Below, piece after piece: positions 30,575-54,710 of a DNA stretch of 64,000 nucleotides; the stretch's first letter is position 1, and each line of letters begins with the position of its first letter. The stretch lies in assembly GCA_963716725.1 (NCBI GenBank), contig CAVQUB010000004.1:32001-96000 (forward strand), in the 5' to 3' direction. The notes below the pieces were generated by a model that saw nothing but the letters and a program-made list of their open reading frames with translations, searched no databases and had not been told where the DNA came from. Source of the stretch: an uncultured delta proteobacterium (GTDB lineage Bacteria; Myxococcota_A; Polyangia; Polyangiales; Polyangiaceae). The translations under genes and the position numbers were made by a program.

Positions 30575-32145
30575 TTCGGTTTGGGCAAGGTCTTGCGCTT
30601 CTCTTCGCCCTTGGTGCCGCTGGCTGTCGGAGCTGGGGGCGGCTGAGCGGACGGCGTGGGCGCGGGGGCAGTCGTGCCAGTGGCGGCCGGCGTGGTGGGG
30701 GTTCTGGGCGGGGGGCGCGCGGCCGAAGCGGGCGTTGCCTCGGCACTGCGGCCGGCGGAGGCCACGGGCAAGGCGGCCTTGGGCGTGAGCCCGGCGCTGG
30801 GTTGGGTCGGGCGTTGGGGCCGCGGGCTGGCGTCCTTGGCCGCGACGCCCGGATCGGTCGCGTCGGCGCCGAGCAGGTCGGTGGGCGCTGATTCCGGCGA
30901 GCCACCGCTGGCAGCGGGAGCCACGCCCGGGGTGGTCGCGCCGGAGGTCGCCGCATCCGGCGACTCCCACGGGCGCCACGCGAATGCGGCGATTGCCGCC
31001 GTGCCGATCCCGACGGAACCCACGAGGCCGATCATGCCGAGGGCCAAGAGCGCTGGTCTTTGCCTTGGCGGCGCCGGAGCAGGGGGCGCGGGGCTTCCGG
31101 GGAAAGCAGCCACGATCGGGCGGGTGACCGCGAAGGAATTCGGTGACTGCGACAGGGGGGCCTCCGCGGAGACGAGCGTGGCGACGGTCGCGGCGTCGCG
31201 AACCGAGTGCGGTCCGGCCGCGGCTTCGATTCGAGTGGCTTCGTCGGCTTTGTCCTGAAGCGCCGCGGCGTAGCTCGGGATCGCGCCTGAGAGAACCGCC
31301 TGCACGTCCCGCCGCATGGTCTCGGCGTCGGGATACCGAGCCTCTTGGGAGAAGGCGAGCGCCCGATCGACGATGGCGCAGACGGCCGGCAGTACGCCGG
31401 GGGACACCGCAGCGAGGCGCGGAGCGGGCTTGGTCGCCATCGCGACGAGCAGCTCGGCTTCGCTGGGCTCTTCGTGGATGCGACGGCCCGCCAGCGCGCG
31501 AAACATCAGCGCGCCGAGGGCGAACAAGTCGGTGCGGCCATCGACCTTTCCCCGCCGACCCAGCGCCTGCTCCGGGGCCATGTAGGGGATGGTGCCCAGC
31601 GCCAGGCCCGTGCGGGTCTTGAACTCCGAGGGCACGTCGTCGATGACCCGTGCGATCCCGAAGTCCAGGATCTTGAGCCGGCCGTCGTTCATCACGAACA
31701 CGTTGTCGGGCTTGATGTCGCGGTGCACCACGCCGGCGGCGTGGGCAGCGCCCAGCGCGTCGAGGATCTGATCGGTGAAGGACAGCAAGTCGCGAACCGT
31801 GAAGCGATCGGCGTGCTGCATGCGGGCAGAGAGCGGCTCGCCTTCGAGCAGTTCGATGACCAGAAACACATCTGCACCGTCGGTGTGGTCGAGTACCCGC
31901 ACGATGCCGGGATGCCCAATGCGATTGGCGACGTAGGCCTCCCGCAAGAACCGCTCTTTGAGATCGCGGCGCCGTGCCATCTCGGGGTGCAGCAGCTTGA
32001 TGGCCACCCGCCGTCCGCTGGTATCGGTGGCCTCGTAGACCGAGGCCATGCCGCCGCTCCCGAGCCAGCGCGCGAGCTTCCAGTCCGCGCCGACGGTCTC
32101 GCCGCTCCGATCTCCGGCGGTTTCGGTCGGGGGCGTCGGAGGCAT
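30571..32145 (-). CDS. Membrane Ser/Thr protein kinase (Hanks type)
   Basis: LGSGGMASVY, VAIKLL, HRDIKPDN, DFGIA, GTIPYMAPEQ, then a TM helix and a Pro/Ala-rich tail. Confidence 0.95.
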   Translation of the reverse strand: MPPTPPTETAGDRSGETVGADWKLARWLGSGGMASVYEATDTSGRRVAIKLLHPEMARRRDLKERFLREAYVANRIGHPGIVRVLDHTDGADVFLVIELLEGEPLSARMQHADRFTVRDLLSFTDQILDALGAAHAAGVVHRDIKPDNVFVMNDGRLKILDFGIARVIDDVPSEFKTRTGLALGTIPYMAPEQALGRRGKVDGRTDLFALGALMFRALAGRRIHEEPSEAELLVAMATKPAPRLAAVSPGVLPAVCAIVDRALAFSQEARYPDAETMRRDVQAVLSGAIPSYAAALQDKADEATRIEAAAGPHSVRDAATVATLVSAEAPLSQSPNSFAVTRPIVAAFPGSPAPPAPAPPRQRPALLALGMIGLVGSVGIGTAAIAAFAWRPWESPDAATSGATTPGVAPAASGGSPESAPTDLLGADATDPGVAAKDASPRPQRPTQPSAGLTPKAALPVASAGRSAEATPASAARPPPRTPTTPAATGTTAPAPTPSAQPPPAPTASGTKGEEKRKTLPKPK

Positions 32146-52085: not shown

Positions 52086-53018
52086 GTGTCATCAGCCGAT
52101 TCCGAGCGTGAGGCCGCGGGGGCCCGAGGGCCGGCACGTGAGCGGCGCGCGCCGCCTTCGCGACTGCCGGCGCCCCGGCAGGCTGGGCGCTCGCCGGTCC
52201 TGCCCTTTGCCATTGGCTTGGGCTTGGGCCTCGCGGTCGCGGTCGGGGTCATCGGCTTCGGATCGTCCAAGCGCCGGGGCCTGAACGCCCAGCTCGAGGC
52301 GCGCTGCGAGGGCCGAGAGATCGCCGCCTGCCGACAGCTGGCGCTCTCGCATCAGATCGGTCTCGAGGGTGCCCGCGACGAGAAGCGCGCGGCCGAGCTC
52401 TTCGAGCGTGCCTGCAACGCAGACGACGCCGCCGCGTGCCTCCACTACGCCAAGTCCATCGAGGCTGCCCGCGCGGGCGGAGTCGACCACGGCCGCGTGA
52501 TCACACTCCTCGAGCGCGCGTGTCAGGCTTCGGAGGCCGAGGCCTGCGCGGCCCTCGGGAAGCGCTACGAGAAGGGACGAGGAACCGCCAAGGATCCCGC
52601 GCGAGCCTTGCAGTTCTACCAACGGGGTTGCGACTACGGCAGCGCCGAGGCCTGCGGTGGCCTGGCGCTGGCGAAATACATCGGCATGGGCACCGAGCCC
52701 AACGTGGAGCAGGCGGTGGTGCTCTTCCAGAAGGCCTGCGATGGCGGCGACGCCGACGGCTGTCACGGCTTCGGGCGCATGGTGCTGGGCGGGCGCGGGG
52801 TGCAGAAGGACGAAGCCAAGGCCGTGCAACTCTTCGAGCGCTCCTGCGACGGCGGCTCGATCATGGGCTGCCGGGCCCTTGGCCTGATGCTTTCCGACGA
52901 AAAAGGCGCGCTGCCGGCCGATCCGGCCCGCGGCAGGAAGATGTTCGAGCGCGCCTGCGATCTGGGCGATCAGGTCTCCTGCGACCGGCTCGATCGTCCC
53001 GCGGCGGGCGCACGCTAG
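52086..53018 (+). CDS. Sel1/Hcp-like Cys-rich repeat protein (start uncertain)
   Basis: Repeats of AC..LG..Y..G.G...D..RA..LF.RAC after a TM helix. Confidence 0.88.
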   Translation: MSSADSEREAAGARGPARERRAPPSRLPAPRQAGRSPVLPFAIGLGLGLAVAVGVIGFGSSKRRGLNAQLEARCEGREIAACRQLALSHQIGLEGARDEKRAAELFERACNADDAAACLHYAKSIEAARAGGVDHGRVITLLERACQASEAEACAALGKRYEKGRGTAKDPARALQFYQRGCDYGSAEACGGLALAKYIGMGTEPNVEQAVVLFQKACDGGDADGCHGFGRMVLGGRGVQKDEAKAVQLFERSCDGGSIMGCRALGLMLSDEKGALPADPARGRKMFERACDLGDQVSCDRLDRPAAGAR

Positions 53019-53156
53019 CCGCTGCGGGGCAGGCCTATGCCGCCGGCGAGGACGGCGTCGGCCGAGAATCCAAAGCCCTCGGGGCCTGGCGCCGGACGAT
53101 CACCGTGCTCTAGTGCCGCGCGGCCGAAGTTCGAGTGGATTCGCCCCTGAGACCTG

Positions 53157-53409
53157 CGCTCATTTGGGCTCTCACAGGAAGGGCGGAAGAGCGGAAGGAT
53201 TTGGGGTGGTCAGGCGTTAGCCTCCGCAGGCCATTTCTGAGCGCGGTCACGTTGAAGTTGACGAGCAGGCCGACGGGCAACCGCTCATTTGGGCTCTCAC
53301 AGGAAGGGCGGAAGAGCGGAAGGATTTGGGGTGGTCAGGCGTTAGCCTCCGCAGGCCATTTCTGAGCGCGGTCACGTCGAAGTTGACGAGCAGGCCGACG
53401 GGCAACCGC
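53157..53409. repeat. 125-bp tandem duplication of the GxxExxY 3' end
   Basis: 53157-53284 and 53282-53409 are identical except T53253/C53378. Confidence 0.92.
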
Positions 53410-53730
53410 GAAAGGCGCAGATAGGTGATGACCTGCGCTTCGTAAATCGGGAGCAGCCGCTCGACCGCCTTGAGCTCCAGGAGGATACGATCTGGAAGCG
53501 ACCAGGTCGAGGCGATAGGCGCAGTCAAGGTGTACGCCTTTGTAGCGGATTGGTAGCGGTCGCTGCCGCTCGAACTTGAGCCGTCGTTCGGACAGCTCGG
53601 CAGATAGACAGGCCTCATATGCGGATTCCATCAGCCCTGGACCGAGATGCCGATGCACCTCGATCAGCGCACCGATCACCTCGTCCGTCCCATCCCCAAA
53701 TCTTCCGAGCTTTCGCCCTTCCTGTGCCAT
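53247..53730 (-). pseudogene. GxxExxY protein (PD-(D/E)XK superfamily), frameshifted near 53495
   Basis: VIGALIEVHRHLGPGLMESAYEACL...YRLDLV / ILLELKAVERLLPIYEAQVITYLRLS...GLLVNF. Confidence 0.88.
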
Positions 53731-53797
53731 CCCCGTGTGGTCGGGCCTCACTCCGAAACAGTTGCGGCTTTCTTCGCAGAAAGTGAGGGGATTTTTC

Positions 53798-54234
53798 TGG
53801 ATTCGGCCCACGACTCGGGGCGGTACGACCAGCGAAAGGGTCGGTCGGTCTGCAGATACCACGCGACGTACGCGTCGATCCTCGCCGCGAGGTCGTCGGT
53901 GCTTCTACTCGAGCCGCTACGGTGTCCGAGAGAGAGAGGGCGGCCGTCCCGAGCGCGGGGCGTCCGCCAGTCTCTCGCTAGGTGCCGCGCAGTCGAAGCG
54001 CTTGCGCCAGTCGTCCACCGTGCGCACGTGCACCCCGAGGAGCCGGGCGATGTCCGTCGCAGGCACTCCGTCCGCCATCATCAACACGGCCTGCGCCCGA
54101 CGAACCAGCCGCTGCTCCGCCCTGGCGGGTCGCAACGCCTCCTCGATCCGCGCGCGCTCTTCAGCCCTCAGCGCGAGCGGAACCGTCGGACGACCACCGT
54201 GCGCTCGGCCCGCGAACGCGCTGTAGTCGATCAT
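53798..54234 (-). pseudogene. IS630 transposase remnant: N-terminal HTH plus extreme C-terminus; DDE domain deleted
   Basis: RAQAVLMMADG...IARLLGV..RTV..WRKRF...LADAPRSGRPP, then STDDLAARIDAYVAWY...RPFRWSY. Confidence 0.85.
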
Positions 54235-54299
54235 GTCACCCCACTACACCGACGACACGCACACGGAAAAGAAACCAGCGAAACTTCTGCCGCGCGGCA

Positions 54300-54584
54300 C
54301 TAGTGCTTGTAGACCTTGTGCTGCGGGCGGCCCGCCAGGATCTGTTCTTTGCCCCAGTTGGTGACGGCTCGGAAGGTATCGCTCTGGATGAAATCCCGGA
54401 AGGCCTGCTCGTCGGACCACTCGCTGGTGATCAGATACGAAGCGTCATCGCTCACGTCCTTCCAGAGTGTCGAATTCGTATGACCGGACGCGGAGCGCAG
54501 GGCGCCGATCACTGAGGCGAACTTCTCTTCGAAGTCGCGCTGCTTGCCCGGCAAGACGCGATAATTCATGCCAACGGTTACCAA
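54300..54584 (-). CDS. Antibiotic biosynthesis monooxygenase (ABM)-family protein
   Basis: AGGAG RBS + TTG; YRVLPGKQRDFEEKF...YLITSEWSDEQAF. The stop TAG coincides with the IS target site. Confidence 0.85.
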   Translation of the reverse strand: MVTVGMNYRVLPGKQRDFEEKFASVIGALRSASGHTNSTLWKDVSDDASYLITSEWSDEQAFRDFIQSDTFRAVTNWGKEQILAGRPQHKVYKH

Positions 54585-54710
54585 GGTGAAACTCTCCTGA
54601 GCGATGGACCATGCACCGGCCATTCGCCGGAGCATGCCTGAGCACCACGAATGCGGCGTCGCTGTCAATGCCGCAGGGCGCCGGGGGGGGCTGCGGCCCG
54701 TGGGCAGCCC

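Follow-up and report, generated by a model that had tools for sequence, protein, structure and literature searches.

The 64,000-nucleotide stretch of Polyangiaceae DNA analysed here (the window; positions 32,001 to 96,000 of contig CAVQUB010000004.1, from an uncultured delta proteobacterium) holds a gene for a GxxExxY protein that appears to lie within three nested mobile layers, namely a hairpin gene carried by an IS10-like unit, which is itself inserted in an IS630-family insertion sequence (IS) and was multiplied with it, as a passenger, to 32 copies. We put the probability of this reading at about 0.8. The innermost layer would be a GxxExxY nuclease gene located in the loop of a long hairpin, the inverted arms of which (~40 nt) consist of GGAAG-type units. 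In the middle layer, the hairpin gene would be the cargo of a ~528-bp non-autonomous element with IS10-type ends and 9-bp target duplications; as the unit has no transposase of its own, it would have been moved in trans by an IS4-family DDE transposase. The outer layer would result from a single insertion of the unit into an IS630-family element of 1736 bp, where the right terminal repeat has its inner edge; this insertion would have swapped the last 8 codons of the transposase for 16 others, and the composite would then have multiplied to 32 copies via IS630 transposition into CTAG sites.

The features of the locus are listed below in positions of the window (ORF, open reading frame).

53110–54303, minus strand: defective, non-autonomous IS630-family copy of 1194 bp with CTAG at both ends, derived from the 1736-bp element
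53107–53142 and 54271–54306: IS630 terminal inverted repeats of 36 nt, 81% complementary and ending in CTAG (repeat search)
53917–54234, minus strand: transposase ORF1, 105 aa, helix-turn-helix (profile matches HTH_23, HTH_29 and HTH_28)
53809–53900, minus strand: remnant of the transposase 3' end (...PFRWSYRPESWAES), with a 666-bp deletion junction at 53900
53800–53808: target-site duplication copy 1, GATTCGGCC, the target sequence seen in cargo-free relatives
53147–53799, minus strand: putative non-autonomous IS10-like (IS4-family) unit with the GxxExxY gene, 653 bp, or 528 bp minus its tandem duplication
53783–53799, minus strand: decayed terminal inverted repeat on the 5' side of the gene, CAGAAAAATCCCCTCAC, 13/17 identical to CTGGGAAATCCCCTCAT
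53147–53163, plus strand: decayed terminal inverted repeat on the 3' side of the gene, CTGAGACCTGCGCTCAT, 12/17 identical to CTGAGGAATCCCCTCAT
53690–53733: hairpin arm overlapping the start of the GxxExxY ORF, 44 nt, 77% complementary to its partner
53166–53209: hairpin arm at the 3' end of the ORF, with a second copy (53291–53334) via the tandem duplication
53247–53730, minus strand: GxxExxY (PD-(D/E)XK) pseudogene, with its ATG at 53730 and a frameshift after ...RLDLV
53157–53406: 125-bp tandem duplication (53157–53281 and 53282–53406, 99% identical), found in the window copy only, among 32 copies
53138–53146: target-site duplication copy 2, GATTCGCCC, located within the right terminal repeat of the IS630 element, in its inner part

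Limits of the inserted unit and its empty site

A first-pass annotation of the window had reported exact TGGATTCG repeats at 53136–53143 and 53798–53805, around a 654-bp segment, and they are present as described; the chance of an exact 8-mer at both junctions is ~3 in 10,000 (hand arithmetic, 68% G+C). The flanking duplication which it deduced is retained here, but the proposed length of 8 bp is better read as 9 bp: the two copies, GATTCGCCC and GATTCGGCC, agree at 8/9 positions and enclose the 653-bp unit, and the exact 8-mer is made up of six duplication bases and two bases (CA) common by chance to the element end and the target. Cargo-free relatives of the IS630 element locate the junctions with a precision of a few bases, and the outermost bases of the unit were assigned from the alignment of terminal repeats and duplication. 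Homology to the units of another genome starts at ~1177–1179 of the element (loci L270 and L256) and stops at ~1700–1701 (L241, L251, L253 and L256), which corresponds to ~53145–53794 in the window. Alignment with GxxExxY loci of other genomes also places the 64-nt segment previously described as a leader within the interior of the cassette, with which it is homologous.

Relatives of the transposase were sought in 151 genomes of the order (including that of the window; 22 with a match) and further in public genomes (21 loci) and metagenomes (80 loci), the latter two providing 101 loci, 78 of which have a readable C-terminus. Some 49 of these 78 relatives are cargo-free (39 by pattern and 10 by eye), their transposase terminating in the terminal CTAG, 36–44 nt past ...KSW. 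The closest of them, L142, L146 and L215 (83–86% transposase identity), read TGG GCN GAA TCC AGT NCA ACT TCT GCC GGG CGG CAC TAG, with a single GAATCC and a codon count between TGG and the stop equal to that of the sequence obtained in the first-pass annotation by rejoining the IS630 3' end after removal of the segment. That reconstruction thus matches natural cargo-free relatives codon for codon, and relatives L126–130 and L135 (~78%) are likewise collinear with the rejoined site; homology between the window element and the cargo-free relatives ends at ...KSWAES. As judged from these alignments, the GxxExxY segment was rightly claimed to be a discrete insertion, flanked by a target-site duplication and lodged in an IS630-family element; besides the ~49 cargo-free relatives, this is borne out by related units that share its ends and have perfect duplications in at least 13 different contexts.

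Could the segment instead be ancestral IS630 cargo that the cargo-free relatives lost by precise deletion between the direct repeats? The closest transposase relatives (L121, 89%) also bear a cassette, cassette-bearing and cargo-free states are interleaved on the transposase tree, and hairpins flanked by short repeats tend to be deleted. Yet the cassettes of the relatives have other genes, arms and junctions, the cargo-free 3' ends span 62% to 86% identity with, in every case, the transposase stop inside the terminal CTAG, and the unit is found independently in many non-IS630 contexts, so that we regard the probability of an ancestral cargo as close to negligible.

L148 (a metagenome contig, ~position 905), also a closest transposase relative (89%), is interrupted at ...RPKS by an element with a protein gene on the opposite strand. 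The idea that a hairpin in the target attracted the insertion was discarded: folding of the vacant 3' ends from 14 cargo-free relatives gave energies no better than those of shuffled sequences and no common structure.

IS10-like units in other genomes and a candidate transposase

A protein search revealed, in one related metagenome-assembled genome (MAG), at least 25 loci with a cassette of this type, which share 75–91% DNA identity and lie in different contexts. Many are internally deleted or gene-less, and their sharp common ends, 5' CTGGGAAATCCCCTCAT... and 3' ...ATGAGGGGATT(T/C)C(C/T)CAG, lie outside the hairpin arms. The clean-end consensus of the sister units and gene-less copies is CTGRGRAATCCCCTCAT. 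A pattern scan of public genomes uncovered 141–143-bp elements in a Sorangium chromosome (Sorangium sp. So ce1128; L283, L297, L300, L302, L303, L308 and L356), which consist of these same two ends and a hairpin without a gene, built from 8-nt units (ACAGGGAG/GCGGGGAG), and which we refer to as miniature inverted-repeat transposable elements (MITEs). Perfect 9-bp duplications flank 13 copies, namely all seven Sorangium elements and L318, L320, L249, L251, L253 and L258 in the MAG, while 8/9 duplications flank L313/L270 and the window unit.

The same end motif occurs at the ends of Salinivibrio contigs, which led to ISVsa5/IS10-like plasmid elements (85% identity). The ISVsa5 element of an annotated E. 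coli plasmid ('IS4-like element ISVsa5 family transposase') has the ends CTGAGAGATCCCCTCAT and CTGATGAATCCCCTAAT (reverse complement) and a 9-bp duplication, TATTGAGTG; its end CTGAGAGATCCCCTCAT is identical to the consensus of sister units and MITEs at 15–16/17 positions, the window unit itself scoring 12 and 13/17. When the ISVsa5 transposase was searched in 201 genomes of the family of the window (its own included), matches were obtained in 36. One of them, in a genome of the same genus as the window, is an intact 1317-bp IS4-family element (L399) encoding a 394-aa transposase (NF033591, 315 bits for a cut-off of 152), with the ends CTGAGGGATCCCCACGA and CTGAGGAATCCCCTCGA and a 9-bp duplication, CTGGTCGTT.

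Given the ends, the length of the duplication and this candidate partner, the unit is likely a non-autonomous IS4-family (IS10-like) element moved in trans, and an intact IS4 element with matching ends in the same genus makes a trans-acting DDE enzyme the likely mobilising mechanism. The first-pass annotation had envisaged a new class of mobile element devoid of DDE, HUH and integrase genes; the 9-bp duplication and the IS10-type ends of the clean sister units, both hallmarks of the IS4 family, and the same-genus IS4 element with matching ends speak against it. Its fallback, an enzyme acting in trans, would be consistent with the IS4-type ends and with L399 as a partner.

Several observations weigh against the nested reading. 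The ends of the window unit are only 12 and 13/17 identical to the terminal-repeat consensus, so that its assignment would depend mainly on full-length homology with the clean units and on the coincidence of boundaries; likewise, what would connect an L399-type transposase with the small units is only matching ends and duplication length. No IS4_2 transposase scored above the cut-off in the genome of the window, an 84% complete assembly. Finally, none of the 101 loci of IS630 relatives carries an IS10-like end, hence a second route into the 3' slot of these elements exists, which the window unit might also have taken (see below). The IS10-like end motif has no other copy in the genome of the window, and, of 23 loci that combine the terminal-repeat motif with an ORF, none has a transposase next to it, the neighbours being ordinary genes only.

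Spread of the unit as a passenger of the IS630 element

Copies of the element were identified by BLAST of the region against the genome of the window (35 contigs). The full-length form (C20:66876–68611; 1736 bp) is bounded by CTAG and contains, on the same strand, the 105-aa ORF1, a DDE ORF and the GxxExxY gene; the DDE ORF of a full-length sister copy scores 181.5 bits with NF033545, a model of the IS630 family (cut-off 100). The host element noted in the first-pass annotation is not intact: in the window copy, on contig C4, the DDE part has been deleted (element positions 405–1070, 666 bp), and the corresponding region (C4:85751–85918) matches transposase residues 243–298 only. In the full copies, the change of frame (−1) from ORF1 to the DDE ORF occurs at a CCCTCTCTCTCTCGG run. 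This run lies in the overlap of the two ORFs (C20:67230–67260; ~53917–53945 in the window), an arrangement suggestive of programmed −1 frameshifting, and is also found in L032, a relative of 67% identity.

The 32 loci fall into five full-length elements, nine without positions 405–1070 (the window copy among them), four without 727–1205, six without 132–1233 (644-bp elements) and eight other partial forms. According to BLAST, the GxxExxY part is kept in all 32 and absent from none, and no copy of the unit was found outside the IS630 element in this genome. The flanks of the 27 two-ended copies all differ, each being bounded by CTAG, and IS630-family elements insert at the TA of CTAG; since 32/32 copies carry the segment, it spreads in this genome as IS630 cargo, an outcome that the first-pass annotation had itself named as counting against its reading, and the independent mobility that had been attributed to the segment here is not supported. 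At least three full-length copies, those on C11, C20 and C5, have open ORF1 and DDE frames and could supply the IS630 enzyme. The window copy, for its part, is a dead derivative, with its transposase deleted, its GxxExxY gene frameshifted and the ends of the unit decayed.

As a side observation, a breakpoint recurs at positions 1232–1238 of the element, i.e. the outer edge of the 5' hairpin arm (C14:36042–36948, C2:111950 and C11:120644), and the C14 copy has additional tandem copies of this arm. Together, these features suggest that the 5' hairpin arm is recombination-prone.

State of the GxxExxY gene

In the window, the match to PF13366 (PDDEXK_3) is distributed over two reading frames (72.4 and 47.9 bits), with the break at profile position 68/69, whereas an intact sister copy matches TIGR04256 over the whole domain at 136.6 bits (cut-off 35). 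The frameshift, after RLDLV, breaks the strand with the D ... E-x-K motif, the presumed catalytic motif of the PD-(D/E)XK fold. An uninterrupted canonical GxxExxY match, reading ...RLDLVVE(A/D)RILLELK, is present in only 3/32 copies (C33, C20:93866 and C13:340438), and one common frameshift patch affects 21, all five full-length elements among them. An additional insertion of 11 nt is seen in each of the six 644-bp elements, and two copies have a 2-nt insertion in the GxxExxY gene. Thus, the passenger gene is mostly dead, being intact in only three of the 32 copies and frameshifted or scrambled in the remainder. The 11-nt and 2-nt second-site insertions are independent (e.g. C12:117172–117815 for the former; C7:217533 and C5:330483 for the latter); they restore one long ORF and scramble the strand of the presumed catalytic Asp, which may be due to chance or to selection that favours read-through.

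The same genome has another GxxExxY gene, unrelated to the first (L003; C14:1800–2800), which lies between inverted arms of CTGCGTGC/CCCGCGTG units, and the direct repeats flanking it (GAGAAACCAGACC..., and AGTTTTTGGGG...GTCGAC) resemble a cassette array. PF13366 is given as a family of unknown function in PMC3424549. A literature search under the name GxxExxY found nothing on mobility (supplements lay outside the search).

The hairpin layer

The 44-nt arms pair with each other in both the minimum-energy and the centroid RNA folds of the intact sister copy (z = −5.9; 0/100 shuffles as good). In other genomes, a ~35-nt motif of the 3' arm is 92–97% conserved, the coding sequence being only ~70% identical. 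Significant flanking inverted arms (ACAGGAAG and 8-nt units) border 19 of the 26 testable GxxExxY loci of related genomes (29 loci in all, minus three near locus ends); the gene-in-hairpin architecture of GxxExxY loci is therefore widespread. The MITE packaging is not: IS10-like ends are present in 0/29 order-level GxxExxY loci, and the gene-less hairpins also lack them, which makes this packaging a feature of one sublineage. Beside the arms of the 19 hairpin-armed loci, the longest direct repeat averages 5.0 nt, as against 4.7 nt after shuffling, and reaches at least 8 nt in a single locus; there is no general duplication at hairpin-arm boundaries. The 8-bp duplication previously put forward as a general mark of GxxExxY loci is thus confined to 1/19 of them, and 0/29 have the terminal repeats described above.

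The arm motif also exists independently of the gene, frequently in gene-less hairpins located directly past stop codons, and is found 117, 81 and 49 times in three related genomes, versus 2, 1 and 7 times for the reversed control. The genomes with 117 and 81 motifs (G182 and G113) have no PF13366 gene; they contain four and six genes, respectively, of the PF05635 family, the protein family of the intervening sequences (IVSs) of 23S rRNA. A comparison of the gene-less hairpins of G182 with the corresponding sites in G150, G185, G224 and G401 identified two sites at which G182 clearly has the insert and the other genomes do not, at an identity (72–80%) for which base-level junctions are unreadable.

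These data bear on the idea, put forward in the first-pass annotation, of a self-contained minimal element that would be cut and pasted by its own PD-(D/E)XK protein with 8-bp duplications, with no DDE, HUH or integrase. The discrete insertion with its flanking duplication would suit such an element, as would the facts that the GxxExxY gene is the sole ORF of the unit and that the GxxExxY part is kept in all of the at least five internal-deletion classes of the IS630 element. But the 9-bp duplication, like the clean ends of the sister units, is typical of IS4 elements of the IS10 type, the gene-less 141–143-bp copies have equally perfect duplications, and the arm motif abounds in G182 and G113 where the gene is missing. 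Moreover, the gene is broken in 29/32 copies, all full-length ISs included, and the unit has no copy outside IS630 in the genome of the window. Altogether, a self-mobilising GxxExxY element strikes us as very unlikely.

Hairpin cassettes with IVS-protein genes in the same IS630 slot

The 3' slot of the IS630 element, between transposase and right end, has also been filled in its relatives: in at least 18 related IS630 loci, arms of repeat units or a cassette directly follow ...KSW. ORFs for PF05635 (23S rRNA IVS protein) are present, in either orientation, in 7/7 such loci and in 7/8 further loci (in this second set, for which 38 of the 58 listed ORFs were submitted, L151 gave none and L143 a match below the Pfam cut-off). 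None of these other slot cassettes contains a GxxExxY gene. Their junctions show a repeat of 0–3 nt in the KSWS* group and, in L165, a diverged 61-nt duplication of the IS end (50/61 identical); in L165/L166, both metagenome contigs, the IVS-protein cassette (~1160–1905 of L165) lies between the two copies of this 61-nt duplication, the inner IS-end copy of which has decayed. In the transposase tree, the interleaving of cassette-bearing and cargo-free elements implies six to seven changes, at least three of them forced by well-supported branches, a pattern that recombination between IS copies could also give. A TGAGCGC trailer motif shared by the window unit and the L121 cassette was too weak to be used.

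The window unit might have entered the slot by the same route as the IVS cassettes, whether structure-directed or recombinational, its IS10-like ends being baggage from an earlier location. Such an entry would agree with the hairpin cassettes of the relatives (PF05635 ORFs in 14/15 loci tested), with the 0/101 count of IS10-like ends and with the repeated, partly forced changes on the tree. It accounts poorly for the limits of the inserted segment, which stops where the units with clean terminal repeats stop and not at the hairpin arms, and for the 9-bp duplication (8/9), to be compared with repeats of 0–3 nt or ~61 nt at the other cassettes. On this evidence we consider this entry improbable, and the insertion of an IS10-like unit, within the nested arrangement, is retained.

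More tentatively, and with the odds rather against it, hairpin-armed small-gene cassettes, whether they encode a GxxExxY nuclease or a four-helix-bundle protein of the 23S-IVS type, might constitute an insertable module riding several vehicles: an IS10-like MITE in the lineage of the window, and related IS630 elements in which the cassettes would enter, leave or be swapped in the 3' slot without transposon ends, by a mechanism as yet undescribed. This IS630 clade would then be a recurrent carrier by which the cassettes are spread. The literature search found nothing on IVS proteins, S23p or PF05635 as IS passengers (supplements outside the search).

Relation to known systems

The unit and its sister units share with MITEs and cargo-carrying derivatives of the IS4 family (IS10/ISVsa5) the 9-bp duplication, the absence of an internal transposase, the abundance of short copies and the existence, in a related genome, of an autonomous element whose ends match; the ends CTG..(A/G)ATCCCCT.AT are clean in the sister units and decayed in the window unit (12 and 13/17). 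The unit differs from these elements by its interior, a long hairpin that, as predicted from sequence, holds a GxxExxY nuclease gene in full-size members. No description of an IS10-like MITE with GxxExxY cargo was found in the literature searched, supplements excepted. The outer element resembles the IS630 'transporter IS' and its deletion derivatives in its frameshifted DDE transposase, CTAG/TA target, terminal repeats and many internally deleted, trans-mobilised copies. Here, by contrast, the passenger would itself be transposable and belong to a different family, and the slot between the transposase and the right end has been filled repeatedly by hairpin cassettes in this clade.

In REP/REPIN systems, a gene for a RAYT, a Y1 HUH transposase, lies between inverted copies of a short repeat that is also frequent without the gene. 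The flanked gene and the many gene-less occurrences of the repeat are common to both systems, but the gene is here of the PF13366 family and not of the HUH type, repeat-rich genomes can be without it, and the readable ends are DDE-type with 9-bp duplications. Membership of the REPIN/RAYT group was therefore rejected, as PF13366 is not a Y1 HUH transposase, and the similarity is one of resemblance only.

The last comparison is with the 23S rRNA IVS. In Coxiella, according to PMC4990558, long-stem terminal inverted repeats enclose the S23p/PF05635 ORF of the IVS, the sporadic distribution of which suggests horizontal spread. An ORF enclosed by stem-forming inverted repeats is a shared feature, and in relatives of our element the IS630 slot in question is occupied by PF05635 genes. 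The window unit differs in lying inside an IS between protein genes, in its PD-(D/E)XK cargo and in having transposon ends outside the stem.

Many GxxExxY proteins exist, no function is known for them and their genes frequently lie between inverted repeats, which raises the question of how they move. For one lineage, the answer would be conventional, hairpin and gene being the cargo of an IS10-like non-autonomous element whose mobility is ordinary. Decay can be followed down to the 141–143-bp gene-less hairpin MITEs; with this series, the clean ends, the 9-bp duplications and a candidate transposase in the same genus, mobility is testable by a standard transposition assay. The case also warns that not every hairpin-flanked GxxExxY gene is a new transposase-free element, and it indicates that a passenger of foreign origin, although already dead, can be amplified to 32 copies by an IS630 element. 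Of wider interest is that hairpin cassettes with IVS-protein genes, which lack transposon ends, have repeatedly filled one and the same slot of IS630 elements.

Surroundings of the window copy

Searches of Rfam (positions 52900–54500) and of PDB sequences returned no match. By profile search, the neighbouring genes of the IS630 copy encode a Sel1-repeat protein and an ABM monooxygenase. The CTAG of the IS630 copy at 54300–54303 provides, through its TAG, the stop codon of the ABM monooxygenase gene (54300–54668, minus strand), the ORF of which is left intact.

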